Source: Sedimenticola sp. (GTDB taxonomy: Bacteria > Pseudomonadota > Gammaproteobacteria > Chromatiales > Chromatiaceae). From it: a stretch of 64,000 nucleotides of DNA. The notes under the pieces were generated by a model. That model had not been told where the DNA came from. It saw only the letters and a list, made by a program, of their open reading frames with translations, and made no database searches. The stretch covers positions 211 through 64,210 of the forward strand of contig JALWMK010000033.1 of the NCBI GenBank assembly GCA_027083925.1, written 5' to 3'. A program made the translations under genes and the position numbers. Positions 17 to 26,121 of the stretch are shown piece after piece (positions within the stretch are counted from its first letter, which is position 1; each line of letters starts with the position of its first letter).

Positions 17-1426
17 CTATTCTTCTGCTTCCTCGTCACTCAGTCCCTGTGGCGGCACCAGGCCATATTCGTTGATCATGCGCCGCAGCCGGGGGCGGGA
101 TACGCCGAGCACTTCGCAGGCTCTTCCCCTGTGCCAGTTGTTGGCTTCCAAAATTCTGCTGATGTGCTCTTTTTCTACTTCTTTCAGGCTGCGGTCGGTA
201 ACGGGCTTCTCCATTGCGGGCTGCGGGCTGCCGTTGCTCTTGCAGAGGATCTGTTCCGGCAGCAGTTCCCGGGTGAAGGTGTCGCTATGGGAAAGCGCCA
301 CACCTTTCATCAGCACATTTTCCAGTTCGCGGATATTGCCGGGCCACTGATAGGCTTCCATGCAACTGAGCACGTCTTTTGAGATGTGGGTGACATTGCT
401 CTGCAGCTCCTGGTTGATACGCCCGAGGAGGGTTTGTATCAAATCCATCAGATCTTCCTTACGTTCCCGCAGCGGGGGCAGGTGGATGTTGATGACCTGC
501 AGGCGGTAATACAGGTCTTCGCGAAAACTGCCTTCCTGCGTCTTCTGGGCAAGATCAACATTGGTTGCAGTAATGACCCGTGCATCAGAGTGCTGAGCCT
601 GCTTTGCCCCCAGAGGGGTGTATTCCTTGTACTGCAGTACCCGTAACAGCTTGGCCTGCATGGCGGGGGAAAGCTCACCTATTTCATCGAGAAAAATGGT
701 GCCGCCCCGGGCCAGGGAGAATTTTCCTTCCTGGCGACCTACTGCGCCAGTGAAGGCGCCTTTTTCATGGCCGAACATGTCGGACTCGAGCAAGGTTTCC
801 ACCAGAGCGGCGCAATTGATGGCGATAAAGGGGCCTTTTGGGGTTTCGCTGGAGCGATGAACGGCTCTGGCCACCAGTTCCTTGCCTGTGCCGGATTCGC
901 CGGTGATCAGGATGGTGGCAGGGCTTTTCGCCACCAGGCCAATGGTTTTGAAAACTTCTTTCATGGCGTGGCTGCGGCCAACCATGCTTGGGTGCCCGTT
1001 GATGCTTTCCTGGGTAGTGGAAAACAGCAGTTCATCGCTGTCTTTGCTGGCATTTAGCAGCTTGCTGATCGAGGAATCCAGCTCATCGATATCGATAGGT
1101 TTGTGAATGTAGTCATCAGCGCCTTTCTGCATGGCCTCGATGGTGCTGTCCATGTCGTGAAAGGCGGTAATCATGATAATGCATATCTGGGGCCGTTGCT
1201 TCTTGAAATCTGCCAGGCCTTCCAGGCCGGATCTGCCGGGCATGCGGATATCCAGAATGATCAAGTCAGGCTCGTAACTGGCGGCCAGCTCCAGACCTTC
1301 ATCGACGCCGGCGGCCAGCTTTACCTGATGTTCCTGGCTGCTCAGGTGAAGCTGAAGGGTACGGCTGCTGGCGATATCATCATCGACGATAAGAATTTTA
1401 CTCATGATTGTGGCTCGCTGTTGCAC
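17..1426 (-). CDS. sigma-54-dependent response regulator (NtrC/Fis family: receiver + AAA+ activator + HTH)
   Basis: 469-aa ORF. Receiver motifs ILIVDDD and [11 protein letters not shown], Walker [15 protein letters not shown] loop (HEKGAFTGA), C-terminal Fis-type HTH. Its start overlaps the stop of the upstream kinase. Confidence 0.9.
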
Positions 1427-4001
1427 TGTTCTGGGTGGTCGGGTTAATGGGCAGTATTACCGATATGCAGGTGCCAGTGGGAGTGTTGCCGGAAACCAGA
1501 ATGCTGGCCTGATGTTGTTCAAGTATGCGTTTCACTATGGCCAGCCCCAGGCCGGTGCCTTTTGCACGAGTGGTGAAAAATGGCTCGAAAATTCGTTTCC
1601 GGTCCGCTTTGCTGATGCCACAGCCGTTGTCGCAGATATCAATGCGTACATTGGTTCCTTCATGGCCGAGCTCAATCATGGCTTCGATGCTGATCTGGGG
1701 GTTTTCGCTGTCTGCCGTGGCCTGGAAAGCGTTGGCAATCAGGTTGGAGAACAGCTGGCGCAATTTGGTGGCATCGGCATAAATCGTGGGCAGTCCGGAA
1801 TGGTACTGGGTGTGCAAGGTGATTTTCTTCTTGTGTTGGCGGCGCTGGGACATGCCGATGGCCAGGTCGATGACCTTGTCAATGGGAATCCACTCGGGCT
1901 TCAGCGCATCGGGACGGGAATAGGAAAGCATGTCTGAGAGGATCTCTTCCATGTAGCGGATCTGTTCCAGGGAGATCTGGCACAGTTCCCTCGTATCGGC
2001 GCTGGTGGCGGGATCGGCTTTCTTGTCCAGGATCTGCAGGGTCATTTTTACGGAGGAGAGGGGATTGCGCAAGTCATGGGCGATCATGCTGGCCATGCGT
2101 CCCATGGCTGCCATGGTTTCTGCCAGTGCCAGCTCCCGGTTCTGTTTTTCGACTTCTTTTTCCAGGCGTTTCTTTTCGGTGATGTCTTCTTTCACTGCGA
2201 GAATGCTGGTGATATTTCCTTCGCCGTCGCGAATGGCGGATATTGCTGCCGCCTCCCAGAATAATGTGCCGTTTTTGCGCCGGTTGTGAAACTCACCGCG
2301 CCACTCGCCCCCTTTCTGGATAGTCTCCCACAGAGTGCTGTACTCTTCCTTGCTGGTTTCCCCTGATTTCAGCAGGCGTGGATTCTTGCCGATGACCTCC
2401 TCTGAGCGATAACCGGATACCTCAGTGAATTTCGGGTTTACATATTCGATGTTTCCCTGGGGATTGGTGATAACCACCGAGCTTGGACTTTGCTCCACTG
2501 CCTGGTAGAGCTTGAGTAGCTCACTCTCTGTGCGCCGTATGTCGGTAATGTCTTCGCCGATGCCAGTCACGCCGATAACCTCCCCCCTGCTATTGTAGGA
2601 AAGGGTATTATTCCAGGCTATCAGGCGTGGTGCGCCACTACGGGTTTTGACCTGCAGCTCCAGGTGGGAAGGAAACTGCCGGGGAGAGTCCATCAGTCGG
2701 ATGATGCCGGAAACTTTCTCCTTGTCCTGTTTGGCCACCAGTTGCCTGACCCATTCTTTGCCGATGATTTCTTTTCTCTCCCAGCTGGTGATGTCGAGAA
2801 AATGGTTGTTGCAGAATGTCAGCTTTCCTTGCCTGTCGAGGGCAACGGCCGCCAGTTCGATATTTTCCAGGGTGTGCCGAAACCGCTGCTCATAGTCGCG
2901 TTGCGCCTCGGTGATGCGGTGTAAATGGGTGGTGCGCGCCAGAAATCCTGTGCCGACAAACACCAGCAGAAACATGGAAAGATACAGTGTGCCATTGTTT
3001 TTCAGGAATATTGGAAAAGTGGAAGAGATCTGGCTGTATGGAATATGAGAGACAATTTTCCATTGGGGGCTTTGCCCCTGCTCATGACTGATAGCTTCTG
3101 TGGTGGCGGGAAGTGCGGCCAGCGCGATTTTTAATGGATAAATTGTTGTGTAGGTGAAAAAGCCTTCTGGAGTTTCAAATTGACCACTTTCGTTGTTGGA
3201 AATTTCCCGCCACGCAACAGGTTTATCGTTCTGGAAGCGGTTGCCGCTATTGAGCATAAAGCCCCATTCATTTTCGTGTTTGGGGCTGCTCAACCAGTAG
3301 CCGTCGCTATTGAGGAGTTCGATATGGTCAGCAATGCTGGCTGCTGCGCGGGAGAAGTTGTCAATCAGTCGTGCGCCCAGGTAGTTGATCAGAACGATGC
3401 CCTTTTTGTTGCCGCTATGGTTGACAACAGGAGTGGCAAAACGGATCACCGGCTTGAAGGGTTCTTCTATTTTTCCGTTTTCCACGTTCAGGTCAAATCT
3501 CGACAGGTAGATGCCGCCGGGTTTCTGTGTCAGGGCTTCGCGAAAATAGTAGCGGTTAGCTTTGTTCTGCAGCAATGCATAGGGAACAACCTCTACATCT
3601 CCATCGTTGTAGTTGATGCGGACGATTTCCATGCCGCTGTTATCCATGTAGCGAATCTGATCGTACAGCCCCTTGTTTTTGGCGAATACCCGGAACTCTT
3701 CTGCAATACGTTGCTCCCTGGTCCAGGGCAGTGCTTCCGGTAACCCCTGGCTTTCGATATGTTCGGCGAGGAAGCGCAAGTCTTTTGCCACATCGGCAAT
3801 GTCTTCTTGCACCATGCGCCGGGCGAGATCCACGTTCAGGGATTCTGTGGATTCAATGCTGCTGTGTTCGGTGGTATAGAAGGTGTAGTAATGCATGCCG
3901 CCTATAATCAGCAGTACCAGACAGATGGGCAGGAGCAGGCTGATGAAGGTTCTGAGCTGCCCGAGATGGCTTGGTTGTGCTGGAGGCTGAACTATGGGCA
4001 T
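1398..4001 (-). CDS. sensor histidine kinase with ~300-aa periplasmic (Cache-like) domain, two PAS domains, HisKA and HATPase
   Basis: 867-aa ORF. Two hydrophobic segments flank a large extracytoplasmic region. H-box MIAHDLRNPL, N-box NLIANAFQA, G-boxes DNGCGI and GTGLGLAIV. Confidence 0.85.
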   Translation of the reverse strand: MPIVQPPAQPSHLGQLRTFISLLLPICLVLLIIGGMHYYTFYTTEHSSIESTESLNVDLARRMVQEDIADVAKDLRFLAEHIESQGLPEALPWTREQRIAEEFRVFAKNKGLYDQIRYMDNSGMEIVRINYNDGDVEVVPYALLQNKANRYYFREALTQKPGGIYLSRFDLNVENGKIEEPFKPVIRFATPVVNHSGNKKGIVLINYLGARLIDNFSRAAASIADHIELLNSDGYWLSSPKHENEWGFMLNSGNRFQNDKPVAWREISNNESGQFETPEGFFTYTTIYPLKIALAALPATTEAISHEQGQSPQWKIVSHIPYSQISSTFPIFLKNNGTLYLSMFLLVFVGTGFLARTTHLHRITEAQRDYEQRFRHTLENIELAAVALDRQGKLTFCNNHFLDITSWERKEIIGKEWVRQLVAKQDKEKVSGIIRLMDSPRQFPSHLELQVKTRSGAPRLIAWNNTLSYNSRGEVIGVTGIGEDITDIRRTESELLKLYQAVEQSPSSVVITNPQGNIEYVNPKFTEVSGYRSEEVIGKNPRLLKSGETSKEEYSTLWETIQKGGEWRGEFHNRRKNGTLFWEAAAISAIRDGEGNITSILAVKEDITEKKRLEKEVEKQNRELALAETMAAMGRMASMIAHDLRNPLSSVKMTLQILDKKADPATSADTRELCQISLEQIRYMEEILSDMLSYSRPDALKPEWIPIDKVIDLAIGMSQRRQHKKKITLHTQYHSGLPTIYADATKLRQLFSNLIANAFQATADSENPQISIEAMIELGHEGTNVRIDICDNGCGISKADRKRIFEPFFTTRAKGTGLGLAIVKRILEQHQASILVSGNTPTGTCISVILPINPTTQNSATASHNHE

Positions 4002-4333
4002 TGTTGCTCGATGTGCCGCTGCAGTCGGCTCAGGTAGCTGTTCAGTGGTTCATCGGGTTTGCGGGGAAGCAGAAAGGTCAGGCGGGCGGCGATGATATAG
4101 GGCTTGCGGTTTCCGCTTCCGGCTGGTGTCTTTTCGGTCAAAACCTGCTGTATGCGACCCAGGGTTTCTTCAACAGGGTATTCACAGTAGCGTGGCATGG
4201 TGATATTGCGGCTATACCACTGGGCGGCAAAGGAGATACCGATCAGCAGCCCCAGAATTACCAGTATGAGTCTGATTGGGCGGAAGCCACTGTATTGCTC
4301 CTGGTTTTGAGGGGTGTTTTCCGGCATTTTCAA
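3992..4333 (-). CDS. small membrane-anchored hypothetical protein
   Basis: 113-aa ORF with one hydrophobic helix (LILVILGLLIGISFAAQWY). It overlaps both neighbours by 4-10 nt (translational coupling). No recognisable family. Confidence 0.5.
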   Translation of the reverse strand: MKMPENTPQNQEQYSGFRPIRLILVILGLLIGISFAAQWYSRNITMPRYCEYPVEETLGRIQQVLTEKTPAGSGNRKPYIIAARLTFLLPRKPDEPLNSYLSRLQRHIEQQCP

Positions 4334-5733
4334 TGGCTGGGTGTAAGCATCTGTTGCTGATAGCAGTCACAGTTGCCGCTGCGCAAAGAGGCCGCAACGG
4401 TTTGAGCCGTGCGTTGCCCCTGGTAAATACGTTCCCGAACGGAAACCCCATCGATGTAATTTGCGTTCAATTGCAGGCCGGGCATCGTATCCAGGCGGGA
4501 GGAAATCTGCGCCAGCCTGGCGCGATACTGGCCATGATACAGAGGCAACCCCTGATAGTGTCTTTCCACTTTGACATAGTCCGGTTCGCCCTTGATTTTC
4601 ATCAAGGGACGCAGGTTGTCGAGCACCATGCCGGTAAGCTTGTCATCGCTTTGCTGCAGTTGTTCGGGGCGCTGTACCCCGCCAATATAGCAGGTCAGCA
4701 ATGCCTGTTCCGGTGGTGCCCGGTGGGGGAACAGGGTGCTCATCCACAGGTTGCCATTGATGGCCAGCCGGTTGTGCTTTGCCACCAGGAAGCCGGTGCC
4801 GTCCAGTTTGTGCTGGATGTTGCGGCTTTTTATCCCCAGGTGCAACACCCCGACAGGGGCATATTTGATATCAGCGAGCAGTTTCCCCAATCTCTCATCT
4901 GTGGCTTCGAGAAGTTGGCTGCTGATGTCTGCCGGAGTACTTAGCACCAGCTGTGGTACCTGGATATGTGTAGTGCCGCTGCTGCTCGTCCCTTCTGCCC
5001 GCCAGCCGTTGTCCTGCCGACGGATGGTAGTGGCCTTTATCCCGGTACGGATGGTGATGCCGGGGCTGCTGGCGATAGCCTGCACCAATTGCTCCATGCC
5101 GCCGGAAAAGGAAAAGGTGTCGGCACGGTTGGTTTGGCGGCGCCTGATTACCTTGTTGATGAACATGCCCATGGTAAGGCTGCCATAATGCTGTTCCAGT
5201 GCGGTAAGGCGTGGCAGTACGGATTGCGCCTCTGCCAGGTCAGGGTCTGATGCCAGGGTGCCGGATATGAAAGCATCCATGGTGGTGTCCAGAATTTCCT
5301 GCCCCAGGCGGCGGCGGATAAATCCGGATACGGTTTCGCCTGTATGGGAGCCTTTGGGGATGAAAGGTTCCGCCATCAGCCGCAGTTTTGCCGGCAGACT
5401 CCACAGGGGTGAGGCCAGCAATGCAGGCATGAGCATGGGAACCCGGGTGAGGCGATTGTTGTGGATGATGTAGCGGTTGAGGCTGTCATCACGCCGCTGT
5501 TTGTCCTGATCCAGCCCCAGGCGGGAAACCAGCAGGTCAACCTGGGGGCGGAAGTTGACCAGCAGGGCGGCTGCATCCTCGGTAAGATAGCCGGCTTCGC
5601 GGCGGCTGCGGATTTTACCGCCAGGACGCTGTGCGGCTTCCCATACTTCCACAGCAACGCCTTTTTGCGCCAGCCACCAGGCAGTGGAAAGGCCGGAGAT
5701 GCCGCCGCCAACAATGAGTACCTGTGTTTTCAT
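4330..5733 (-). CDS. HemY-type FAD-dependent protoporphyrinogen/coproporphyrinogen oxidase-like protein
   Basis: 467-aa ORF. N-terminal dinucleotide fold VLIVGGGISGLSTAWWL...GGKI. Full-length resemblance to the PPOX/HemY family (…FPHRAPPEQALLTCYIGG…, C-terminal NYIDGVSVRERI). Confidence 0.75.
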   Translation of the reverse strand: MKTQVLIVGGGISGLSTAWWLAQKGVAVEVWEAAQRPGGKIRSRREAGYLTEDAAALLVNFRPQVDLLVSRLGLDQDKQRRDDSLNRYIIHNNRLTRVPMLMPALLASPLWSLPAKLRLMAEPFIPKGSHTGETVSGFIRRRLGQEILDTTMDAFISGTLASDPDLAEAQSVLPRLTALEQHYGSLTMGMFINKVIRRRQTNRADTFSFSGGMEQLVQAIASSPGITIRTGIKATTIRRQDNGWRAEGTSSSGTTHIQVPQLVLSTPADISSQLLEATDERLGKLLADIKYAPVGVLHLGIKSRNIQHKLDGTGFLVAKHNRLAINGNLWMSTLFPHRAPPEQALLTCYIGGVQRPEQLQQSDDKLTGMVLDNLRPLMKIKGEPDYVKVERHYQGLPLYHGQYRARLAQISSRLDTMPGLQLNANYIDGVSVRERIYQGQRTAQTVAASLRSGNCDCYQQQMLTPSH

Positions 5734-5736: not shown

Positions 5737-7764
5737 CTATTTGTTTTTCAGTTCGGCCTTCATTTTATCCAGCAGTTCCCGGTCGAGAAGTCCCAGTCCT
5801 CCATGTTCCGGATCCTGCCTGGCTTCCACATAGTGCTGGATCTCGGAGAAGCGCTTTGCAGCCTGTTCATTTCCCTTCAGCCGGGGCACCTTCTGTTGTG
5901 CAATAGCAAAGGCGCCGAAGTTCAGTTCCTGCATGCCAAAACCCTTCATGCGGCGTACCGCCTTCATCATGGCCCGATTGCGAAAACGGGTCAGATCTTC
6001 CGGGGTGATCAGTTCAATACTTTCACGGCGGGCACCGAATTCTGCTGCTTTCTTGATACCGGCGCGGATGAAATCTGGTGCGGATTCCACCCGGCGCAGG
6101 GCTTCGGCGCTCCAGCTGACGCCAGCGAGATCCGTATGGAAAACCTTTTCCACATCTTCCCGGGTGACGACGATGGCGCTGCGGCGCCTGGCCTCGCGCT
6201 CGGCGGCGGCCTGCATGCCGGGTTTCACAAACATGGCGGCGGCGGGGGAGCGTTTTTCCAGTAGCTCATCCAGTAGTGCTTCGGCACTGTTTTCCCAAGG
6301 GAGCTTGCGTTCGTTACTGTCACCTGCTTCCAGGCGCTGCAACAGCTTGATATTGACTTCCAGGCGGCCCTCGTTGCGCGCCACGTCTTCGGCAACGGTA
6401 GCGATGCCGTCGCGCAGAAAGCCTGGCAGCTCGTTCAGCCAGGCTTTGGCTTCCGTGGTCCAGGCCAGTGCTTTGGCGGTGTTATCCCCGGTACCCGTTT
6501 CCGGGCGCCGCATGGGGAAGTTGTCGCCAAAGCGATTGGCTGCGAGTGTACTCAGATGCCCTGCGGTGACTATGGATTCTCCCAGCGACTGCACATGGGA
6601 TTCGGCGCGCTTGCGTACCATCTTGCGCAGGAATCCCGGCACTTTTTGCAGGCGCTGGCTGGCTTCTTCCGACCACTTTATGGTGCCTGCGCTCTGCCCG
6701 GCAAGGGGCTGGATGATGGCTCGCCCGCTGGGGCGGTGGCCGCACCAGGGGTCGGCGTCCATGATGTCTCCGCCCATGGCCAGCGGGCGCGCCCGGCAGC
6801 CGCCACAGAGCTTCTGGTATTCGCATTTTCCGCATTTGCCCTTCAGCTCCGGATTGCGCAAGCGGTCGAAGGTGGGAGACTGGTCCCAGATTTCCCAGAA
6901 ATCCTGGTTACGGATGCTGCCTTCTTCGTCAGGAATGTACGGGCAGGCAGTAACGGTTCCTTCGGGGGTGATGCGGCAGTAGTGAATGCCCGCCAGGCAG
7001 CCACCCCCCTCGTATCCCTGGGCGCGGGTGAGGGGCGATTCAGAATCGTGTTCGTAGGCTACACGTTTGTAGTGGGGTGCACAGCGGGCGCGGATAATCA
7101 GATCCCGAGTATTTTCCTGGGCTTTCACCAGGTGTTTCAGCACCTGTTCATAGCGTACCGGGCTGATGTCGGACATGGATTCGCCCCGGCCGGTGCAGAC
7201 CAGAAAAAAAATATTCAGTACATGTGCGCCGCTGGCTCGGGCGAAGTCGATCATGGGCTGCACTTCGTGGGCGTTTTTCTCGGTGACGGAAAAATGCACC
7301 TGAAAGGGCAATGCATGCTTGCGGCAGTGATCCATGCCTGCCAGGGTTTTTTCCCAGCTTCCGGGGCAGCCGCGAAAACTGTCGTGGCGATCGGGATCCA
7401 GGGAATCCAGGCTGATTCCCATGCCCAGTGTGCCGGCGGATTTCAGGGTTTGTACCCGGGCTTCGCTGAGCAGCACGCCGTTGGTGCCCACCACGACGGA
7501 AAGCCCCAATCGACTGCCGTGGGTGACCAGGGTTTCCAGATCTCGCCGCAGCAGGGGTTCGCCGCCGGTAAGTACCACCATGGTTTCATTGCTGCGGGAT
7601 GCAATTGCATCCAGCAGATTTTTGACTTCCGCCGTGCTCAGTTCTTCGCTGCTGCCGGTGTCCCGGGTTTCGGCGTCCATGTAGCAATGGGCGCAAGCCA
7701 GGTTACAGCGACGCGTAAGGTTGACGGCGATGAGAAACAGATCGTTATCCATTGCGGGAGTCAT
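5737..7764 (-). CDS. radical SAM/SPASM protein (AhbD/NirJ-like core) with four C-terminal PCP_red-like repeats
   Basis: 675-aa ORF. CX3CX2C motif CNLACAHC, GGEPLL, and a SPASM-type Cys cluster CGKCEYQKLCGGCRARP. The C-terminal ~330 aa contain four W-x2-(E)A...(V/L)P-x-F-(L/I)R repeats. Confidence 0.85.
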   Translation of the reverse strand: MTPAMDNDLFLIAVNLTRRCNLACAHCYMDAETRDTGSSEELSTAEVKNLLDAIASRSNETMVVLTGGEPLLRRDLETLVTHGSRLGLSVVVGTNGVLLSEARVQTLKSAGTLGMGISLDSLDPDRHDSFRGCPGSWEKTLAGMDHCRKHALPFQVHFSVTEKNAHEVQPMIDFARASGAHVLNIFFLVCTGRGESMSDISPVRYEQVLKHLVKAQENTRDLIIRARCAPHYKRVAYEHDSESPLTRAQGYEGGGCLAGIHYCRITPEGTVTACPYIPDEEGSIRNQDFWEIWDQSPTFDRLRNPELKGKCGKCEYQKLCGGCRARPLAMGGDIMDADPWCGHRPSGRAIIQPLAGQSAGTIKWSEEASQRLQKVPGFLRKMVRKRAESHVQSLGESIVTAGHLSTLAANRFGDNFPMRRPETGTGDNTAKALAWTTEAKAWLNELPGFLRDGIATVAEDVARNEGRLEVNIKLLQRLEAGDSNERKLPWENSAEALLDELLEKRSPAAAMFVKPGMQAAAEREARRRSAIVVTREDVEKVFHTDLAGVSWSAEALRRVESAPDFIRAGIKKAAEFGARRESIELITPEDLTRFRNRAMMKAVRRMKGFGMQELNFGAFAIAQQKVPRLKGNEQAAKRFSEIQHYVEARQDPEHGGLGLLDRELLDKMKAELKNK

Positions 7765-10119: not shown

Positions 10120-10248
10120 TCAATGCAATAACCAGTAACCGACAATGTAACCGATAACCACCAGATTAATGATGCCGCCGATAATAGCCATGCCGTCTAA
10201 AAGGCTGGGCCGCCATTTTTGCCTTGTGGCCACTGTTGCTGACTTCAT
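10120..10248 (-). CDS. 42-aa single-pass membrane ORF (not in supplied track)
   Basis: My own translation: MKSATVATRQKWRPSLLDGMAIIGGIINLVVIGYIVGYWLLH. It starts 7 nt after the cupredoxin stop, has a weak SD, and is followed by the hairpin. Confidence 0.3.
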   Translation of the reverse strand: MKSATVATRQKWRPSLLDGMAIIGGIINLVVIGYIVGYWLLH

Positions 10249-13799: not shown

Positions 13800-13815
13800 T
13801 GGCTTGGTTTTTGCT
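13800..13815 (+). promoter_or_regulatory. candidate sigma-54 (-24/-12) promoter for the cydA-like operon
   Basis: TGGCTTGGTTTTTGCT. GG-N10-GC spacing is kept and 10 of 12 specified consensus positions match. It lies ~60 nt upstream of the ATG at 13875. Confidence 0.45.
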
Positions 13816-16103: not shown

Positions 16104-16933
16104 GCGTACTGTTAAAGACATTGGGCTTCAGCCTGGGACTGACCCTGCTCTTTACCTTGGTAACCTACCTGCTTCCCCAGGTAAAGGGTGAGGCCCCGGT
16201 GGAAAAGGCGGTGGATCTGGGTTCCCTGACCATGGAAAGCTTCATTGCCCTGGGGGACGAAATCTTCCACAACAAGGGTACCTGTACCCTGTGCCACCAG
16301 CCCGCACCCTTGGGACGAGCGCCGGATATTGGGGGAGAAGACATGGTAGCGCTTGCCAACAAGCATCTGGCCGATGAACGTTACCAGGGAGATGCAAAGA
16401 ATGCCGAGGAATATATCCGGGAATCCCTGCTTCATCCTGGCAAATATGTTGTCGCCGGTTGGGGGAAAAAAGGCAGCAACGATACCGAGTCTCCAATGCC
16501 TATGGTGGACAAGCCCCCCATACAGCTTACGCCGATAGAGATCGATGCCGTGATCGCCTGGTTGGAGGCAAAGGATGGTGGCGAGGTTACCGTGACTCTG
16601 CCCACAGCGGAAGCGGCAGCGGAAGTGGCTTCGGCAGCAACTGCCGACGACAGCGGCAAAGCTCCTGTCCTGGCGACAACAGCGGTAGAAGCACTTGCCA
16701 AATACGCCTGTACTTCCTGCCATGCAATGGACAGTAATGACGTCTTGGTTGGCCCGGGGTTGGTGGATATCGGCTCCCGCCTGAGCAAGGAAGAGCTGCG
16801 GCAAAGCATTGTTGAGCCGAATGCGGTGGTGGCTGAGGGCTTCCCGCCTGCCATGCCGCCTGATTTTGCATCCAAGATGACAGTGAGTGAGCTGGAGATG
16901 ATTGTCAACTATCTGGCGGAGAAGAAAGGATGA
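16100..16933 (+). CDS. membrane-anchored dihaem c-type cytochrome
   Basis: 277-aa ORF with an N-terminal hydrophobic anchor and two CXXCH motifs (CTLCH, CTSCH). ATGA overlap with the cydA-like stop. Confidence 0.85.
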   Translation: MSVLLKTLGFSLGLTLLFTLVTYLLPQVKGEAPVEKAVDLGSLTMESFIALGDEIFHNKGTCTLCHQPAPLGRAPDIGGEDMVALANKHLADERYQGDAKNAEEYIRESLLHPGKYVVAGWGKKGSNDTESPMPMVDKPPIQLTPIEIDAVIAWLEAKDGGEVTVTLPTAEAAAEVASAATADDSGKAPVLATTAVEALAKYACTSCHAMDSNDVLVGPGLVDIGSRLSKEELRQSIVEPNAVVAEGFPPAMPPDFASKMTVSELEMIVNYLAEKKG

Positions 16934-19359
16934 AAGGTTTCCGGATTACCGCATTCTGGCAAGCTTTGATTGCCGCTGTACTGGCATGGCTGATTTTCGA
17001 TAACGCCTTTCCTCCGGTGCTGCCGAAGACCCTGATGATCCAGTACATGATCATCACCATTATCGGCATCCTTTTGTATTTTGCCTTTGATGACAAGAAA
17101 TGGTCTGAATTCAAGGCTCCCATCCTGGCCACCCTGCAGGATGATGACAAGGCGTTGTTGCGCGGGTTCTTTCTCATAGCCATTCCCTTGCTGGCGGCCT
17201 ATGTGACCTATGGCGTGGTCAAGCCGTCGCTTGAGGCGCCGGTGGAACTGCGCCAGGTACATCCCGCGCCCCCCTCCGCAGTCAGGGCATACAACAAGAC
17301 CTTTGATCTGGCAACACTGGAGAATCCGGTACGCCATGATATTCTGGATGCCCTGGCGAAGGACAAGGAAGCGGGCTGGAGCAAATACCATGAATCAGTA
17401 GCCGCAGGACGGGATGTCTACTACACAAACTGTTTCTATTGCCACGGTGATCTGCTGGATGGCAAGGGACAATATGCCCATGGCTTCAGCCCCCAGCCGA
17501 TCAATTTTCAGGATCCTACTGTCATCCCGCAATTGCAGGAATCTTTCCTGTTCTGGCGCATTGTTACTGGTGGCCCGGGGCTGCCGGTAGAAGGCACGCC
17601 CTGGAATTCCGCCATGCCCGTATGGCATGAAATGCTGGAAGAGAACGATGTCTGGAATGTGATCAATTTTATCTTTGATTACAACGGGCAAGTGCCGCGC
17701 ATCTGGGACCCCGAAATTTCCAGAACCGTAACCGGCATGAAAGATGAAGTGCTGGCTCGCCGCAAGAACATCATGGGCAAGGAGTTGTACCAATTTCGCT
17801 GTGAGGTCTGCCATGGTGAGAACGGTGTCGGTGATGGCGTAGCGGCAGAGTTCATGTACCCCAAGCCCCGTGATTTCAGTCTGGGTCTGTTTAAGTACAA
17901 AAGCTCTCCGGGCACCCAGTTACCCCGGGATGAGGATCTGTTTAACACGATAAAAACCGGACTGCCCGGCACAGCTATGCCTGGCTGGGGTCTCAAGGGG
18001 CGCGCCCTGCTCACCGACGAGCAGATTCGCAGCCTGATCCCGGTGATCAAGGGCTTTGACATCACTATGGCCTGGCCGCCAGAGGATGCAGATGAGGAAG
18101 CCTTTGATGATGACGGTTTCTATACCAAAACGGATTTCCGGGTGATCACCGGGGTCGAGCCGATAACTGGGCAGATTGCCTATTCCGAAGAATCGGTGGA
18201 AAAAGGCAGGCTGGCGTTCCTAAAGTCCTGTTCCGAATGTCATGGTGATGATGGCAGGGGCAATATTCAGTCCGGGAAAAAGCTGGAGGATGACTGGGGT
18301 AACCGTATCTGGCCACGGAATCTGACCAAGCCCTGGACCTGGCGCGCTACCCAGTCACTGGCCGCCACCGATAAAGAGCGGGATGAGACCATCAAGGCGA
18401 TCTATGCCCGACTGTCCATCGGCATTCCCGGTACGCCCATGCCCGCGCATCGCGCCCTGGAAGAAGGCAACCCGGATCCGGTGCGCCTGGAAGACCGCTG
18501 GCATATCTCCAACTTCGTGTACAGCCTGCGGGAAACTGCAGTTCAGCCCCAGGATGCTCCTGTTGTCAGCAGCAAGAAGCTGGAGGCCGATCTGCCATCG
18601 ACTGTAGATGATGAGCGATGGGCTGAGGCGCCGCCGGTAACCCTGCACCTGGTTCCCAACGTGATCAAGGAGGATCGTTTGTTCACCCCGCTGAACGACG
18701 CAGTTACTGTGCGTGTGTTGTATAACGATGAGGAAATCGCCTTCCTGCTGGAGGTGGATGATCGCACCATGAGTGTGCCGGGAGATAAGTATTTTACTGA
18801 ACTGCAGGACGAGAATCTGGAAATGCACCCGGATGCATTCGCCATACAGTTTCCCCATGAAGATGCCTACACGTCTGCACCCATGGTAAGGAAGCCGCTG
18901 TACCGCCATGGTGATGCCAAGCATAAAACCACCATTTGGTACTGGAATGCGGGCAGCCTGGAACCGAAGAGAGACCCCGTTGCCATGCTGCTGGATGGCA
19001 CAGGCCCGGACAACAAACTCAAACCCCGGGAGAAAGAAGCCAGCCTCAGCGCCACCGGTGAGTGGCAGGGAGGGCGTTGGCAGGTGCTGATGAAACGTCC
19101 CAGATATGCCGCAAATGGTGATGTATTGTTCGATGAAGGGCAGTTTATTCCTGTATCATTTGCCAACTGGGACGGCAGCAACGGGGAGGCTGGAGGCAGA
19201 CATACCCTGACTACCTGGTACTGGCTGATACTGCCGCCGGAAACGAATGTACTGAAAGTGTATGGGGTGCCGGCTGGTATTGGATTTCTGGTGTTTCTTG
19301 CCGGAGTGCTGCTGGTGCGGTCACAGCGTAAGGAACAAATCAACCCAGCCACCAAATAG
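16930..19359 (+). CDS. trihaem c-type cytochrome fused to an EB_dh/DOMON-like (ethylbenzene dehydrogenase gamma-type haem b) domain, with N- and C-terminal membrane anchors
   Basis: 809-aa ORF. Three N-terminal hydrophobic helices and the motifs CFYCH, CEVCH and CSECH. The C-terminal ~200 aa fit the EB_dh pattern (DERWAEAPPVTL...DAFAIQFP...TIWYWNAG...GRWQVLMKRP...VSFANWDG). Terminal helix GIGFLVFLAGVLLV. ATGA overlap with the upstream gene. Confidence 0.75.
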   Translation: MKGFRITAFWQALIAAVLAWLIFDNAFPPVLPKTLMIQYMIITIIGILLYFAFDDKKWSEFKAPILATLQDDDKALLRGFFLIAIPLLAAYVTYGVVKPSLEAPVELRQVHPAPPSAVRAYNKTFDLATLENPVRHDILDALAKDKEAGWSKYHESVAAGRDVYYTNCFYCHGDLLDGKGQYAHGFSPQPINFQDPTVIPQLQESFLFWRIVTGGPGLPVEGTPWNSAMPVWHEMLEENDVWNVINFIFDYNGQVPRIWDPEISRTVTGMKDEVLARRKNIMGKELYQFRCEVCHGENGVGDGVAAEFMYPKPRDFSLGLFKYKSSPGTQLPRDEDLFNTIKTGLPGTAMPGWGLKGRALLTDEQIRSLIPVIKGFDITMAWPPEDADEEAFDDDGFYTKTDFRVITGVEPITGQIAYSEESVEKGRLAFLKSCSECHGDDGRGNIQSGKKLEDDWGNRIWPRNLTKPWTWRATQSLAATDKERDETIKAIYARLSIGIPGTPMPAHRALEEGNPDPVRLEDRWHISNFVYSLRETAVQPQDAPVVSSKKLEADLPSTVDDERWAEAPPVTLHLVPNVIKEDRLFTPLNDAVTVRVLYNDEEIAFLLEVDDRTMSVPGDKYFTELQDENLEMHPDAFAIQFPHEDAYTSAPMVRKPLYRHGDAKHKTTIWYWNAGSLEPKRDPVAMLLDGTGPDNKLKPREKEASLSATGEWQGGRWQVLMKRPRYAANGDVLFDEGQFIPVSFANWDGSNGEAGGRHTLTTWYWLILPPETNVLKVYGVPAGIGFLVFLAGVLLVRSQRKEQINPATK

Positions 19360-19414: not shown

Positions 19415-19437
19415 TAAATAGCTACATCGAGAAACTT

Positions 19438-20034
19438 ATGATTTGCAAAACCGTATTGCTGGTTTTTTGGCTGCTGTGGATGCCCTTGTTGCAGGCTGAC
19501 AGCCAGCTTGGGGAGGATGCGGCAGTACCTGGAATTATCGAGGCGCCCCCCGGGGGCGACTTTCTCCTGCATACCAGCAAGGGGTCTTTTTCCCTGAAGG
19601 ACTATCGGGGCAAGGTGGTGTTGCTGTATTTCGGCTACACCAAATGTCCGGATGTTTGCCCGACCTCTCTTTCCTATTTGGCACAGGCGTTCAATGAGCT
19701 CAATGATGACGAGCTGAAAAAGGTCGTTGGTGTTTTTGTCAGTGTTGACCCCAAAAGGGATACCTTTGAGTTGCTGGATGAATATGTGCAATACTTTCAT
19801 CCCAATTTCATTGGTGTCACCGGCAGTGAAAAAGAGCTTTCTGCTGCTGCAGCGCTGTATGGCGCCCAATACTATGAAGTAGAGCTAGAAGACTCGGCCT
19901 TTGGCTATGCGGTCAATCACTCTGCCGCCACCTACCTGATTGCACCGAACGGGGAGCTGCGCTTTATTTTTCCGCACGCTACATCGCCGATGGTGATCAG
20001 TGAGGCCATTCGTTATGTGATGGATGGGAATTAG
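19438..20034 (+). CDS. SCO1/SenC family copper chaperone (thioredoxin fold)
   Basis: 198-aa ORF with an N-terminal anchor, the CPDVCP (CxxxC) motif and a downstream conserved His (AVNHSAATYLI). Confidence 0.9.
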   Translation: MICKTVLLVFWLLWMPLLQADSQLGEDAAVPGIIEAPPGGDFLLHTSKGSFSLKDYRGKVVLLYFGYTKCPDVCPTSLSYLAQAFNELNDDELKKVVGVFVSVDPKRDTFELLDEYVQYFHPNFIGVTGSEKELSAAAALYGAQYYEVELEDSAFGYAVNHSAATYLIAPNGELRFIFPHATSPMVISEAIRYVMDGN

Positions 20035-20274: not shown

Positions 20275-20439
20275 CAACATTGAGCTAAAGCATGGTTTTG
20301 ACAGGCTTTGATGGAACTTTCTGAAACTGGTCTGTTTCGTGCATGGAGTTAGCCAGGCTGTCGGCTGCTTTTGAGTTTTGGTTGTTGCAACCAAGCCCTT
20401 TACTGTCGGCAAATTAACAATAGACCTGGAGGAAATCCA

Positions 20440-21546
20440 ATGGTTGTAAGAGTCTCAACGGGGCGCGCTTTACTGGCCGCCACACTGGGGGTCGGAATGG
20501 CAGTAACAGCGCAAGCTGCCAGCTATCCGGATATCGGACCCTTACCGCAGTTAAAAGTCGACAAGGCAAAAGCCGAGCTGGGCAAGCGCCTGTTCTTTGA
20601 TGTGCGCTTGTCGGGTGATGCTGGCATCTCCTGTGCCGATTGTCATGTGCCAGAAAAGGCGTATGCCAGCAAGGAGGCACTGTCTCCGGGCTACCCTGGA
20701 AACGGGCATTTTCGCAATGCCTCTTCCTTGGTGAATACGGCCCACAAGAACATCTGGAACTGGGATGGCCGTATCGGCACCAACCTCAATGACATGACCC
20801 GTGAGATGATCACGGAAGACTACATCATGAACATGGACATGCGTATCATGCAGGAGCGCTTGAAGCAGGATCCTCTGTACGTCAAGATGTTCAAGGACGC
20901 AGGTTATGGTGAGCCTTCCAATGGCTCTGTGCGCAAGGCGATTCCCGAATATCTGAAAACCCTCACTTCTACCGGCTCCCCGTTTGACAAGGGCACAATG
21001 TCTGCTTCTGCAAAACGTGGCATGAAATTGTTCAAGGGCAAGGCGGGCTGTATTCAGTGCCACAATGGCCCCTTGCTAAGCGATCTGAAGCCCCACAATA
21101 CTGGTGTTCCGGAGAATTTCGATGTATTCCTGGATCCGATGAATCACCAGGCCTTCATGGCCTTTACCATGTTCCAGGGTGTGCCAGACTACAGGAATCT
21201 GAAGCGAGATCCGGGATACTTCAATGTGACCCTGGAGAAGCAGGACATGGGCAAGTTCATCACCCCATCCCTGCGGGAACTCAAGTACAGTGCTCCGTAC
21301 ATGCACAATGGCATGATCAAAACCCTGTCCGAAGTGGTCGGGTTCTACAATGCTGGTGGAGGGAAGGATCGCAACAAGAGCAAGAAGCTCAAGCCTCTTG
21401 GTCTGAGCGCCAATGAACAGAAAGATCTGGTGGCGTTTCTAGAGGCTCTTTCCGGTGATCCGCTGACCAGCCCCAAATACGTATGGGATCAGCCCTATCC
21501 GGCAGAGTATCCTGTAATCGAAAATTGGACGCAGGTCCGTAACTAA
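20440..21546 (+). CDS. dihaem cytochrome c peroxidase (CCP/MauG family; IdrP-like by context)
   Basis: SD GGAGGA then ATG at 20440 and a signal peptide (…AVTAQAASY). Motifs CADCH and CIQCH, plus the PYMHNG Met-ligand region. The longer track ORF from 20371 lacks a plausible start context. Confidence 0.9.
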   Translation: MVVRVSTGRALLAATLGVGMAVTAQAASYPDIGPLPQLKVDKAKAELGKRLFFDVRLSGDAGISCADCHVPEKAYASKEALSPGYPGNGHFRNASSLVNTAHKNIWNWDGRIGTNLNDMTREMITEDYIMNMDMRIMQERLKQDPLYVKMFKDAGYGEPSNGSVRKAIPEYLKTLTSTGSPFDKGTMSASAKRGMKLFKGKAGCIQCHNGPLLSDLKPHNTGVPENFDVFLDPMNHQAFMAFTMFQGVPDYRNLKRDPGYFNVTLEKQDMGKFITPSLRELKYSAPYMHNGMIKTLSEVVGFYNAGGGKDRNKSKKLKPLGLSANEQKDLVAFLEALSGDPLTSPKYVWDQPYPAEYPVIENWTQVRN

Positions 21547-21561
21547 TTCGAGGAGAATGTC

Positions 21562-22788
21562 ATGAGTATAAAGAAAATCGCTCCTACCCTCGTTGCGGTT
21601 GCCGTTGCGACTGTACTGACAGCCTGTCAGGCGCAGGAGACCAAAACGGGAAGCGCTGTATCCGGAAAATCCATGGCTGCCAAGACCGCGCAATCCGGCC
21701 CGCCGCCGCTGGCTCCCCTGGGTGCGCCGCCGATACCGCCGGACAACAAACAGACGCCTGCCAAGATCGAACTGGGCAAGATACTGTTTTTTGATCCCCG
21801 TCTTGGCGGTGATGCCTCTACCGGCTGTTCCACCTGCCATGAGCCTGACCAGGGTTGGGCGTGGGCGGAAGATTTTTCCCGCGGTTATCCTGGTACGGTT
21901 CACTGGCGCAACAGCCAGACCATCATCAACAGCGCTTATTATGCGCGTAACTTCTGGGCAGGTTCTGTGCCTTCGCTGGAGAAACAAGCGCCTTCCGCCG
22001 CCAAGGGAGGTGTAGCCGGTAACGGTGAAAACGATATCATGGAATCCCGCCTGGCGCTGATTCCCGGATACCGCAAGCGCTTCAAAGAAGTGTTTGGCAC
22101 TGAATGGCCGTTGATCGGCGACGCCTGGAGAGCCATTGCCGCATTCGAGCGCACCCTGGTGCAACGGGATACCCCGCTGGACAAGTACCTGCTGGGCGAC
22201 AAGAACGCCCTGACCGAACAACAGGTGCAGGGCATGGCGTTATTCAACGGCAAGGCAGGCTGTATCCAGTGCCACAATGGCGAACTGGCTTCGGATCAGG
22301 ACTATTACAACATAGGTGTTCCACCGAACAAACGCTGGGAAGAAGATGGTCTGGCTCAGGTTACCTTCCGCTTTGAGCTTTATGCCAAAGGAATGACCGA
22401 AGAAGGGTATCGAACCACCAAGGCCGATCCTGGCTTCTATTTCCGCGGCAAAAACACATGGGACAAAGGCAAGTTCCGTACTCCATCGCTGCGCTATACG
22501 GCATTCACCGCGCCCTATATGCATAACGGGATCTTCTACACTATGGAAGATGTGGTGGATTTCTACAATCGCGGCGGCTTCGATGAAGATGGCCGTACCA
22601 CTGCCTTTGCCGAAAACAAATCCAAATTGATCAAACCCCTTGGTTTGACGGATGAAGAGAAAGAGAATCTGGTAGCGTTCCTGGAAGCCTTCTCTGGTGA
22701 GGAAATGCTGATGGAGAAGCCGGCAATGCCGGAATATGCGCCTCTGTTCACCAGGGCTGAACTGGAAGCTGCACAGGAGGAAAAATAA
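21562..22788 (+). CDS. dihaem cytochrome c peroxidase, lipoprotein-type signal (second CCP; IdrP-like by context)
   Basis: 408-aa ORF with SD AGGAG, a lipobox LTAC, the motifs CSTCH and CIQCH, and PYMHNG. Confidence 0.9.
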   Translation: MSIKKIAPTLVAVAVATVLTACQAQETKTGSAVSGKSMAAKTAQSGPPPLAPLGAPPIPPDNKQTPAKIELGKILFFDPRLGGDASTGCSTCHEPDQGWAWAEDFSRGYPGTVHWRNSQTIINSAYYARNFWAGSVPSLEKQAPSAAKGGVAGNGENDIMESRLALIPGYRKRFKEVFGTEWPLIGDAWRAIAAFERTLVQRDTPLDKYLLGDKNALTEQQVQGMALFNGKAGCIQCHNGELASDQDYYNIGVPPNKRWEEDGLAQVTFRFELYAKGMTEEGYRTTKADPGFYFRGKNTWDKGKFRTPSLRYTAFTAPYMHNGIFYTMEDVVDFYNRGGFDEDGRTTAFAENKSKLIKPLGLTDEEKENLVAFLEAFSGEEMLMEKPAMPEYAPLFTRAELEAAQEEK

Positions 22789-23363
22789 TGAGCGATACAA
22801 AGAAAAAAGATGAAACAGCGGCTGACCATGGTCGATGCATGTTGAATCGCCGGCAGTTTCTGATGTACTCAGGTACTACGGCTGTAGCTGCCAGCACCAT
22901 ATCTATCAGCCTTTTCCCGGGTGAGGCTCAGGCCAAGGCGCGGGTGGTAACTTATCCGCGCATGAAGGTCGCTCGCCTGAGTGAGCTAAAAGATAACCAG
23001 CCAGTGGATTTCAACTATCCTGACGATGGCCCCAACTCCCAATGCTTCGTCGTAAAGATGGACGGCGCCAAGGCTGGTGGTGGTGTTGGTTCCCAGCGTG
23101 ATGTGGTGGCATTCAGCTACCTTTGTACGCACCAGGGTGGTCCGATGAATGGTAAATATCAGGCCGTGGGCGAGCACCGTGTGCTGGGGCAGTGCCCCTT
23201 GCACTTGTCCACCTATGATTTGACCCGCCACGGGATTATCGTGTCCGGGCAGGCTTACCAGAGTATCCCTCAGGTATTACTGGAGGTCGATGGCGATGAT
23301 ATATACGCCGTTGGCATTATGGGGCTGTTGTTCGGCCGTAACGAAAACCTGATGGATACCTAG
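22788..23363 (+). CDS. Rieske [2Fe-2S] small subunit of AioB/IdrB family, Tat-exported
   Basis: 191-aa ORF with the twin-arginine motif NRRQFLMY and the Rieske motifs CTHQGG and CPLH. TAATG overlap with the upstream CCP. Confidence 0.85.
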   Translation: MSDTKKKDETAADHGRCMLNRRQFLMYSGTTAVAASTISISLFPGEAQAKARVVTYPRMKVARLSELKDNQPVDFNYPDDGPNSQCFVVKMDGAKAGGGVGSQRDVVAFSYLCTHQGGPMNGKYQAVGEHRVLGQCPLHLSTYDLTRHGIIVSGQAYQSIPQVLLEVDGDDIYAVGIMGLLFGRNENLMDT

Positions 23364-23377
23364 GGAGGATATATAAG

Positions 23378-26071: not shown

Positions 26072-26093
26072 GTTTCCGTTAACCGGAGACAGA

Positions 26094-26121
26094 GGGGTGG
26101 CCATTGGCCGCCCCTTTTTTT
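26094..26121 (+). terminator. rho-independent terminator
   Basis: GGGGTGGCC-ATT-GGCCGCCCC stem followed by a T7 run, 23 nt after the large-subunit stop. Confidence 0.75.

Follow-up and report, generated by a model that had tools for sequence, protein, structure and literature searches.

The four-gene operon idrABP1P2 is found in the iodate respirers Denitromonas sp. IR-12 and Pseudomonas sp. SCT (PMC8692401; Yamazaki et al. 2020 cited therein). The same operon lies within the first 26 kb of a 64,000-nt stretch of a Sedimenticola sp. contig (JALWMK010000033.1, assembly GCA_027083925.1), and we refer to this whole stretch as the window. In IR-12 and SCT a histidine kinase and a sigma-54 regulator are directly adjacent to idr, as here. 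The wider surroundings of idr are poorly conserved according to PMC8692401. The window differs from IR-12 and SCT in genes that are extra here and unreported there: a HEAT-repeat protein, an operon for a cytochrome bd-like complex of the OR-N2 subfamily, a SCO1 copper chaperone, a secreted copper-motif protein, and a tetrapyrrole-type set encoding a radical SAM enzyme, a HemY-type oxidase, and a USP protein with PCP_red domains. Comparative genomics indicates that, in many marine Gamma- and Alphaproteobacteria, idr is co-inherited with a single clade of OR-N2 proteins.

OR-N2 proteins were described purely in silico (bioRxiv 10.1101/2021.01.16.426971) as CydA homologues with 14 transmembrane (TM) helices that lack CydB and the quinol site, encoded in operons with several cytochromes c and an EbdC homologue, the electron donor being "not clear". 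More broadly, "alternative electron donors" are frequent in OR-N operons (Murali et al., bioRxiv 10.1101/2021.01.16.426971). The protein and operon in the window are of this type. The OR-N2 description reports no link to iodate reductase or to radical SAM/HemY/PCP_red genes, and none to SCO1, copper-motif proteins, or sigma-54 control.

A periplasmic molybdoenzyme beside a bd-like protein is also known from the nitrite oxidoreductase (NXR) clusters of Nitrospina gracilis, Nitrospira defluvii, and Kuenenia stuttgartiensis (Lucker et al. 2013, PMC3578206), where the bd-like protein was called enigmatic. Those clusters share with the window a 14-TM bd-like "oxidase" without a Q-loop, an extra EB_dh-type (NxrC-like) protein, mono- or diheme cytochromes c, and cupredoxin-like proteins. 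NXR is a nitrite oxidoreductase of the type II dimethyl sulfoxide reductase family with an Fe-S beta subunit, whereas the enzyme here is Aio/Idr-type with a Rieske subunit and would act as a reductase. The proteobacterial hosts, the dedicated tetrapyrrole-type genes, and the sigma-54 circuit also set the window apart from the NXR clusters.

The sigma-54 two-component system AioS/AioR controls aioBA, with kinase and NtrC-type regulator genes next door as in the window. Arsenite oxidase AioBA (matched structures 1G8K, 4AAY, and 5NQD) also shares with the window a large subunit combining Rieske_3 and a Mo-bis(pyranopterin guanine dinucleotide) (Mo-bisPGD) domain, a Tat-exported Rieske small subunit, and an order in which the small-subunit gene comes first. 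Unlike aioBA, the operon here contains two peroxidase genes, and relatives of its enzyme reduce iodate rather than oxidize arsenite. Late heme synthesis (HemY/CgoX, ferrochelatase, AhbD/NirJ) is the nearest counterpart of the tetrapyrrole-type genes: the HemY-type oxidase passes TIGR00562 and the radical SAM protein is closest to NirJ2/AhbD. Compared with AhbD/NirJ, however, the radical SAM protein scores far below the cut-offs and is fused to three PCP_red domains, with four more on the USP protein. In contrast to heme-synthesis operons, the genes here are tied to the bd-like complex, and alphaproteobacterial islands carry a ferrochelatase gene instead of the HemY/radical SAM genes.

Two open problems meet at this locus. 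One concerns which electron donor serves IdrAB and what becomes of hypoiodous acid, H2O2, and O2, steps of iodate respiration that have so far been modeled, not demonstrated. The other is the role of the 14-TM OR-N proteins, which have had no assigned function since they were first noticed beside NXR. No mention of iodate together with cytochrome bd or bd-like proteins was found in the literature collection that we searched. A reading of the window made from its sequence alone (the sequence-only reading) had taken the composition of the region to be undescribed. This does not hold for the parts, as idrP1P2BA, the OR-N2 operon, and the NXR-cluster architecture are published, but it appears to hold for their linkage. 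The conserved coupling of the parts, the dedicated idr-linked OR-N2 clade, and the cofactor gene set that follows OR-N2 appear to be undescribed.

Linkage of idr and OR-N2 genes

We examined gene neighborhoods from two anchors. The CydA-anchored scan covered 80 loci from one genome per species, with 10-kb flanks searched by tblastn with all window proteins, and the IdrA-anchored scan covered metagenome loci, 32 of them informative. Genes were detected by tblastn thresholds and a crude open reading frame (ORF) caller, and we use "trio" for the CydA-like, diheme cytochrome c, and c-heme/EB_dh genes. The trio was invariant across the CydA-anchored loci, and idrP1P2BA lay directly beside it in 28 of the 56 loci with enough flank. 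These idr-trio loci came from Sedimenticolaceae, Thiotrichales, Motiliproteus, Aestuariirhabdus, many Alphaproteobacteria (Hyphomicrobiales, Roseobacter-group, Sneathiellales), and one Nitrospinota metagenome-assembled genome (MAG), and the adjacency persisted down to 55–65% protein identity. From the IdrA side, 16/32 loci had the trio and 16/32 did not. In a neighbor-joining tree the idr-linked CydA-like proteins formed one clade with an alpha and a gamma branch, and the identities of CydA-like and IdrA proteins to those of the window co-varied (Spearman rho 0.92, n = 36).

Gene order varied between lineages and gene content was kept. In L148 and L150 about 15 families, the same as here, are collinear on one strand, namely the 113-aa gene or the regulator, the trio, idrP1P2BA, HEAT, the copper-motif protein, USP, radical SAM, HemY, and SCO1. 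In Alphaproteobacteria, Profundibacter amoris included, the 113-aa gene comes first, followed by the small TM genes, the trio, idrP1P2BA, and HEAT. When all ORFs of 86 loci were clustered, no recurrent neighbor family other than those of the window was found. Likewise, around CydA-like homologues in 83 loci the recurring families were exclusively those of the window, a degree of clustering far beyond chance. Vibrio, Moritella, and Pelagibaculum carry idrP1P2BA without the trio, flanked by a divergent HEAT gene and by the orthologous kinase and regulator. The HEAT protein and the sigma-54 two-component pair thus follow idr.

The sequence-only reading had proposed conservation of the whole neighborhood in other genomes as the check on its island, and the blocks are indeed co-localized in many distant genomes, sometimes reordered. 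Its view that the adjacency is functional is supported by this conservation across classes, by the idr-dedicated clade, and by shared promoter types (below). Coincidence does not account for the adjacency, as the linkage is seen from both anchors, content is kept through reordering, and no other family recurs. Functional coupling with a shared regulon is, on these comparisons, very probable.

Two further arrangements were seen in these scans. Many idr-less lineages (L053, L055, L056, L059, L062, L069, L072, L073, L078) have two paralogous trios in tandem, often with the copper-motif protein before them and USP-radical SAM-HemY after them. The Nitrospinota MAG locus L076 (JBHHVT010000035.1) has idrP1P2BA, with an IdrA 56% identical to that of the window, divergent from an OR-N2 trio, which would extend iodate-reductase-type clusters to a phylum known for oxidizing nitrite.

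Regulatory genes and promoters

The suggestion that the region carries its own sigma-54 circuit is borne out by the kinase and NtrC-type regulator genes and by conserved −24/−12 elements before the HEAT, bd-like, and idr operons (Table 1). The kinase and regulator genes overlap by 29 nt. The regulator is 52–55% identical to the idr-adjacent regulator of Vibrio, Moritella, and Pelagibaculum, and full-length kinase homologues adjoin idr in L084–L086 (33–37% identity, E down to 1e-173). A homologous kinase/regulator pair also adjoins idr in Denitromonas IR-12 and Pseudomonas SCT (Table S2, PMC8692401). In IR-12 its locus tags 00682/00683 precede idr at 00684–00687, a pair given in Table S2 and undiscussed in the text (PMC8692401).

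Promoters were sought within 200 nt upstream with a GG/GC-anchored −24/−12 score and compared across distinct regions of the loci. Elements were present upstream of HEAT in 29/45 distinct regions (p 5e-18), upstream of the bd-like operon in 32/37 (p 1e-26), and upstream of idrP1 in 37/78. Control regions gave 5/37, 3/88, and 2/94, and the background was about 11%. The window has no match to the strict sigma-54 consensus (TGGCAC-N5-TTGCW, at most one mismatch), and no −24/−12 promoter was found in it before the minus-strand unit that starts at 9979. The predicted elements indicate that OR-N2 and idr share sigma-54 promoters in the sigma-54-type, mainly gammaproteobacterial, loci.

An FNR-type box was found upstream of idrP1 in 24/77 distinct loci versus a background of 2.8%, and the window and its relatives have the same spacing of 66–67 nt between this box and the −24/−12 element. 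Among alphaproteobacterial loci without a sigma-54 element at idrP1, the box was present in 9/9 inspected (two mismatches allowed), and a Crp/FNR-family regulator gene lies upstream in L041, L054, and P. amoris (L167). The box is consistent with the experiments on Roseovarius azorensis (PMC11445184), in which iodate induced idr only when O2 was limiting.

Two perfect copies of the 18-nt repeat GGCGCAAGCTCTTGATCT lie about 200–260 nt upstream of the weak idrP1 −24/−12 element. We rejected this repeat as a site for a shared regulator: neither of the other two promoter regions contains it, and the closest relative, with one copy carrying 2 mismatches, is the only relative that does. A 105-aa ORF (13457–13774, minus) fills the divergent HEAT/bd-like promoter region. 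It has a 97-aa gene call in L001 and none in L003, covers the predicted HEAT promoter, and is unlikely to be a gene. Outside the island, a second sigma-54 pair (46820–49871, minus) encodes a PilS-like 6-TM kinase and an NtrC-type regulator, and the host therefore employs sigma-54 elsewhere too.

Iodate reductase operon

By gene content and similarity, the plus-strand unit 20440–26071 is the published iodate-reduction island idrP1P2BA (PMC8692401). Two diheme peroxidase genes in the cluster are the criterion that separates idr from aio neighborhoods (Reyes-Umana et al. 2021, PMC8692401), and the unit was assigned to idr, not aio, because two such genes are directly upstream in the same operon. 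The best NCBIfam match of IdrA was TIGR02693 at 389.8 bits, only marginally above the arsenite-oxidase equivalog threshold of 359.05. Proteins from Sedimenticola, Thiodiazotropha, Vibrio, and Moritella shared 69–89% identity with IdrA (82% for Sedimenticola hydrogenitrophicus, 69–71% for Vibrio and Moritella), and public annotation calls the large subunit "arsenate reductase (azurin) large subunit". The carriers of the iodate island named in PMC8692401 include Sedimenticola, Vibrio, and Moritella. Solved AioA structures matched at 263 bits, compared with about 1900 for close IdrA relatives. Among the relatives compared, IdrA belongs to the marine Sedimenticolaceae/Vibrio-type branch. The N-terminus of IdrB, whose gene is just upstream of that of the large subunit, contains RRQFL. 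The sequence-only reading had called the molybdenum enzyme Idr/Aio-type; the Idr half of that label stands and the Aio half does not, given the peroxidase genes, the distant AioA, and the relatives from idr taxa.

Sedimenticola hydrogenitrophicus SB48 has two IdrA paralogues (P0012 and P0015, 82% and 79% identical to the window protein) on the same 127,697-bp contig. Only one of them was seen beside a trio (L033).

OR-N2 operon

The CydA-like protein can be placed in the OR-N2 subfamily of cytochrome bd-like proteins by its residues. The published OR-N2 signature, in reference numbering, is H99, Y183, E190, H213, H269, M430/N434, S563, and W569 (Murali Table S6, bioRxiv 10.1101/2021.01.16.426971), and all of these are found here at matching offsets (H105, Y185, E192, H215, H271, M432/N436, S565, W571). 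All but S565 were invariant in a 13-sequence alignment of close relatives. Across 99 sequences, the signature residues other than N436 and S565 were among the charged or aromatic positions conserved at ≥97%, and N436 and S565 were also ≥97% conserved. Altogether 151 positions were ≥97% conserved between idr-linked and idr-less members, and the catalytic-core residues were the same in both clades. Homology to solved CydA is limited to the N-terminal helices (query residues 92–297) and ends before the Q-loop, and all quinol-binding residues of canonical CydA are absent. The protein has about 14 TM helices: hydropathy gave 13 segments, and a low-confidence model showed about 15 long helices. That AlphaFold2 model, built on an alignment of 13 close homologues, had a predicted local distance difference test (pLDDT) score of 43, too poor for a fold search.

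Pfam and NCBIfam scans found no CydB-like product in the bd-like operon. The invariant partners of the CydA-like gene are the diheme cytochrome c gene and the 809-aa c-heme/EB_dh gene, the latter split into two genes in some lineages. Their 2 + 3 CxxCH motifs agree with the "five further c-heme sites" counted in the sequence-only reading.

Tetrapyrrole-type genes

The radical SAM protein scored 317 bits to NirJ2 (TIGR04055) and 307 to AhbD (TIGR04545). Both equivalog cut-offs are 500, and the protein is therefore a relative, not a member, of AhbD/NirJ2. Profile searches against Pfam and PDB gave no credible match for the 113-aa protein, the gene of which is directly upstream of the CydA-like gene in Alphaproteobacteria. 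A literature search on PCP_red/PF08369 found nothing relevant.

The USP/PCP_red, radical SAM, and HemY genes occurred in 27/44 CydA-anchored trio loci of at least 15 kb, at similar counts with idr (14/24) and without it (13/20). They occurred in 0/15 trio-less idr loci, and the same was true of the 113-aa gene (0/15). The radical SAM, HemY, USP/PCP_red, and 113-aa genes thus track the bd-like trio, not idr. This gives comparative support to the earlier proposal that the tetrapyrrole-type genes serve the CydA-like module. Because of this distribution and of the ferrochelatase gene in the alphaproteobacterial version of the island, we think it somewhat probable that the gene set serves the bd-like complex.

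A ferrochelatase gene lies divergently upstream of the 113-aa/CydA-like/idr cluster in the Roseobacter-group loci L167, L041, L043, L046, L050, and L054, and the radical SAM/HemY/USP genes are absent from those positions. Profundibacter amoris (L167 7294–9049, CP032125.1) is a cultured carrier of this arrangement.

HEAT operon and copper-motif protein

A 745–807-aa HEAT protein flanks idr, divergently in Vibrio, Moritella, and Pelagibaculum and downstream of idrA in Alphaproteobacteria. The 246-aa secreted protein has a type-1-copper-like ligand set, H132...C178-x2-H181-x2-M184, that is invariant in 41 homologues. The sequence-only reading named it a cupredoxin. That name fits the ligand motif, which makes the protein a candidate cupredoxin; no cupredoxin Pfam family matched, and the profile search against PDB matched only the C-terminal prealbumin-like domain. 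An AlphaFold2 model from the single sequence was unusable (pLDDT 32). Idr-less trios, too, can be accompanied by the copper-motif protein and SCO1.

Some trio-less idr loci (L095 6431; L120 13073) retain SCO1 and/or the copper-motif protein beside idr. In L095 the order is copper-motif protein, HEAT, and SCO1 directly before idrP1. These genes may be remnants of trio loss or copper proteins serving Idr itself.

Proposed mechanism and alternatives

We propose that the extended iodate-reduction island is one co-regulated, periplasm-facing respiratory unit of three modules, a proposal that we regard as evenly balanced between right and wrong. Module 1 would be IdrAB and IdrP1/P2 with the accessories that follow idr (the cytoplasmic HEAT protein, the Cache/PAS kinase, and the sigma-54 regulator). 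Module 2 would be the OR-N2 membrane complex (the CydA-like protein, two small TM proteins, the diheme cytochrome c, and the triheme-c/EB_dh protein) with the copper-motif protein and SCO1. Module 3 would consist of the AhbD/NirJ-like radical SAM protein and the USP protein, both with PCP_red domains, the HemY-type oxidase, and the 113-aa anchored protein. The kinase would sense periplasmic iodate and/or redox state and, together with low O2, activate all three operons. The membrane-anchored c and b hemes of module 2 may form an electron hub beside IdrAB, and the CydA-like protein may be a cytochrome c-fed terminal sink that reduces O2 and/or reactive iodate by-products in parallel to IdrAB. 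Module 3 would supply or tailor the heme(s) of module 2.

The assignment of the CydA-like complex as an electron sink, slightly favored over a quinol-side source, is tentative. It is suggested by the retention of the OR-N2 heme-ligand and oxygen-site residues together with the absence of Q-loop homology, and by a CydA-like core that is unchanged between idr-linked and idr-less clades. Genes for petB-like cytochromes b adjoin idr-less OR-N2 trios in L081 and L082 (Nitrospinota), L065, L067, and L068, in L082 directly downstream of the trio on the same strand, which suggests that quinol is oxidized elsewhere. The Pseudomonas SCT model, in the summary given by PMC8692401, needs a terminal oxygen reductase for the O2 from iodate reduction.

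Several observations weigh against the proposal. The trio is missing from about half of the IdrA loci that we examined, and the confirmed iodate respirers IR-12 and SCT have the kinase/regulator pair and no CydA-like gene in the shared-gene table (PMC8692401); the trio is therefore not required for iodate reduction. No CydA-like protein of the iodate reducers Roseovarius azorensis, Notoacmeibacter marinus, or Aliiroseovarius sediminilitoris was among the 120 matches listed. The −24/−12 element before idrP1 is degenerate in the window (7/11 consensus positions). Each scan contributed its best 80 matches, which are phylogenetically non-independent and mostly MAG contigs, although complete genomes have the same layout (L011, L024, L167), and the neighbor-joining trees carry no support values. 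The NXR cluster of Kuenenia, a strict anaerobe, also encodes bd-like proteins with this architecture (PMC3578206), which speaks against a role in O2 reduction alone.

The strongest alternative, though on balance an unlikely one, is a dedicated quinol-to-Idr route, one of the hypotheses of the sequence-only reading. The CydA-like protein would take electrons from the quinone pool at a non-canonical site and pass them through its b hemes, the EB_dh heme b, the c hemes, and perhaps the copper protein to IdrB/IdrA. The complex would then stand in for bc1 and a soluble cytochrome c, much as if an alternative complex III were wired directly to the periplasmic molybdoenzyme. NXR has a counterpart of this architecture in Nitrospina, Nitrospira, and anaerobic Kuenenia, and for those clusters a quinone role like that of alternative complex III was proposed (PMC3578206). 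EB_dh domains are electron entry or exit subunits of type II molybdenum enzymes, and the monophyletic idr-specific OR-N2 clade and the rho of 0.92 fit co-adapted physical partners. A small monoheme cytochrome c gene lies beside idr in 8 loci, all trio-less, and in 0/45 trio loci, yet most trio-less idr loci also lack such an adjacent gene, so that the complementarity is weak. Against a quinol route, the canonical quinol-binding residues are all missing and homology stops before the Q-loop (also PMC3578206), the petB-like genes beside idr-less relatives suggest that the trio itself is not quinol-oxidizing, and the catalytic core does not differ between idr-linked and idr-less clades.

A bolder arrangement, which we consider improbable, is a physical supercomplex of IdrAB and OR-N2, in which a bd-like heme (possibly heme-copper) enzyme with a non-canonical heme is hard-wired to the molybdoenzyme and would complete iodate respiration. 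OR-N2 would then reduce hypoiodous acid, H2O2, or O2 released by Idr, or carry quinol electrons to it, and the non-canonical heme would be made by the radical SAM/HemY/PCP_red genes, with ferrochelatase in Alphaproteobacteria. If true, this would give OR-N enzymes, which also stand beside NXR, a first function and a first cofactor pathway.

It is very unlikely that the molybdenum enzyme is instead an oxidase of arsenite or another substrate, with the bd-like complex, fed through the c and b hemes, as its private terminal oxidase, as is thought for NXR in nitrite oxidizers. The marginal score above the arsenite-oxidase cut-off (389.8 vs 359.05), the public "arsenate reductase (azurin)" annotation, the "alternative electron donors" of OR-N operons (Murali et al.), and a sigma-54 two-component control that resembles AioSR control of aioBA would suit such an oxidase. 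They are outweighed by the two adjacent peroxidase genes, which mark idr and not aio (PMC8692401), by closest named relatives from the iodate-island taxa Sedimenticola, Vibrio, and Moritella, and by the distance to solved AioA structures (263 bits). Members of the alphaproteobacterial idr group, moreover, reduce iodate, and their idr is iodate-induced (PMC11445184); oxidation of iodide to iodate with O2 would, judging from standard potentials, yield almost no energy. Finally, that the modules are mere neighbors, accumulated at a hot spot or hitch-hiking by horizontal transfer with no functional interaction, is barely credible and already largely refuted by the linkage and promoter results: about half of the idr loci lack the trio, about half of the trio loci lack idr, and the region bears neither an anomaly of composition nor a tRNA or mobility gene, but the adjacency is kept at 55–65% identity across classes and one other phylum after reordering, one CydA-like clade is dedicated to idr, the same promoter type is conserved before three operons, and no unrelated family recurs nearby.

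Both of the open problems become approachable in organisms much easier to grow than nitrite oxidizers or anammox bacteria, the cultured carriers being Profundibacter amoris, Sedimenticola hydrogenitrophicus, and Aestuariirhabdus sp. A candidate heme-tailoring gene set and a candidate circuit for sensing iodate and low O2 have also been identified. Sulfur-oxidizing symbionts (Thiodiazotropha) are also among the hosts, as are large sulfur bacteria, a point of relevance to the production of iodide where seawater is low in oxygen.

Island layout and boundaries

Table 1 Features of the island (positions in the window; TM, transmembrane segment).
Feature	Position	Strand	Evidence or remarks
Sigma-54 response regulator	17..1426	-	REC, AAA+ sigma-54 interaction domain, HTH_8 (Pfam)
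Sensor histidine kinase	1398..4001	-	Two TM flanking ~300-aa Cache-like periplasmic domain; 2 PAS, HisKA, HATPase
113-aa protein	3992..4333	-	N-terminal TM anchor; two invariant Cys in a ~70-aa domain
HemY-type FAD oxidase (protoporphyrinogen/coproporphyrinogen oxidase family)	4330..5733	-	TIGR00562 249.5 bits vs 97.85, full length
Radical SAM/SPASM protein, AhbD/NirJ2 type, fused to three PCP_red	5737..7764	-	CxxxCxxC and SPASM motifs
Protein with two USP and four PCP_red domains	7745..9979	-	Pfam/NCBIfam
Perfect 14-nt inverted repeat, TATTCACCCGGCAT / ATGCCGGGTGAATA, 24-nt loop	10068-10081 / 10106-10119		Between HEAT-operon end and USP-operon start
42-aa single-TM protein	10120..10248	-	Gene call in relatives; homologues in several loci
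Secreted 246-aa copper-motif protein	10255..10995	-	C-terminal prealbumin/CarboxypepD_reg-like domain
HEAT-repeat protein, 798 aa	11019..13415	-	PBS-lyase-like repeats; cytoplasmic
Sigma-54 −24/−12 element TGGCATGAATAATGCA	13460..13475	-	45 nt upstream of HEAT start codon
Sigma-54 −24/−12 element TGGCTTGGTTTTTGCT	13800..13815	+	60 nt upstream of first bd-like operon gene
51-aa single-TM protein, possible small subunit	13875..14030	+	Conserved in Gamma- and some alphaproteobacterial loci
50-aa single-TM protein, possible small subunit	14044..14196	+	
CydA-like membrane protein, OR-N2 subfamily, 633 aa	14202..16103	+	Pfam PF01654, E 1e-17
Membrane-anchored diheme cytochrome c, 277 aa	16100..16933	+	Invariant partner of CydA-like gene
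809-aa c-heme/EB_dh protein	16930..19359	+	3 TM, three CxxCH, EB_dh heme b domain, C-terminal TM
SCO1/SenC copper chaperone	19438..20034	+	C70-x3-C74...H161 invariant
Two perfect copies of GGCGCAAGCTCTTGATCT, 49 nt apart	20069-20086, 20118-20135	+	SCO1-idrP1 spacer
FNR/Crp-type box TTGATTTGGCTCAA	20261..20274	+	179 nt upstream of idrP1 start codon
Degenerate −24/−12 element TGGTCTGTTTCGTGCA	20328..20343	+	Before idrP1, where relatives carry a good sigma-54 promoter
idrP1, diheme cytochrome c peroxidase (MauG/CCP family)	20440..21546	+	Sec signal; CCP_MauG domain, two CxxCH
idrP2, diheme cytochrome c peroxidase	21562..22788	+	CCP_MauG domain, two CxxCH
idrB, Rieske small subunit	22788..23363	+	TIGR02694 119.9 vs cut-off 95.65; Tat signal (TAT_signal match)
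idrA, Mo-bisPGD catalytic subunit, 897 aa	23378..26071	+	N-terminal Rieske_3 (3Fe-4S); PF18465, PF00384, PF01568
Intrinsic terminator	26093-26121	+	GC-rich hairpin then T-run, read from sequence 3' of idrA

The ORF listing and the Pfam/NCBIfam scans of the window resolve region 17–26121 into four tight gene units, all present gene by gene where the sequence-only reading had put them. The minus unit from 9979 to 17 has six genes that overlap or are separated by at most 3 nt, and the start of the window truncates it on the left, where the regulator gene ends at base 17. The minus unit from 13415 to 10120 encodes the HEAT protein, the 246-aa secreted protein, and the 42-aa TM protein. The plus unit 13875–20034 encodes the two ~50-aa TM proteins, the CydA-like protein, the diheme cytochrome c, the 809-aa EB_dh protein, and SCO1, and the plus unit 20440–26071 encodes the two diheme peroxidases, the Tat-Rieske subunit, and the 897-aa molybdenum subunit. 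The clean terminator reported after the last unit was also seen. The island is an idr cassette (HEAT, kinase, regulator, idrP1P2BA) carrying two insertions, the OR-N2 operon between HEAT and idr and the OR-N2-associated cofactor genes between HEAT and kinase.

The region between 26.2 and 28.4 kb contained no family recognized in the Pfam scan, and the first recognizable ordinary gene starts at 28384, consistent with the earlier statement that ordinary genes begin only after ~28.4 kb. The GC content of the island resembles that of its flanks, the window has no tRNA genes, and the 10 kb downstream of the island are syntenic in relatives. A recent horizontal insertion, for which the sequence-only reading had suggested comparing composition and flanks, is thus unsupported. 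No Rfam family reached threshold within the window.

The inverted repeat formed by TATTCACCCGGCAT and ATGCCGGGTGAATA could be a terminator, a boundary, or a protein-binding site. The ~2.2 kb 3' of the idrA terminator (26200–28460) contain ORFs on both strands, none with a Pfam family. This stretch is 92.7% identical in the closest relative and is thus conserved sequence.

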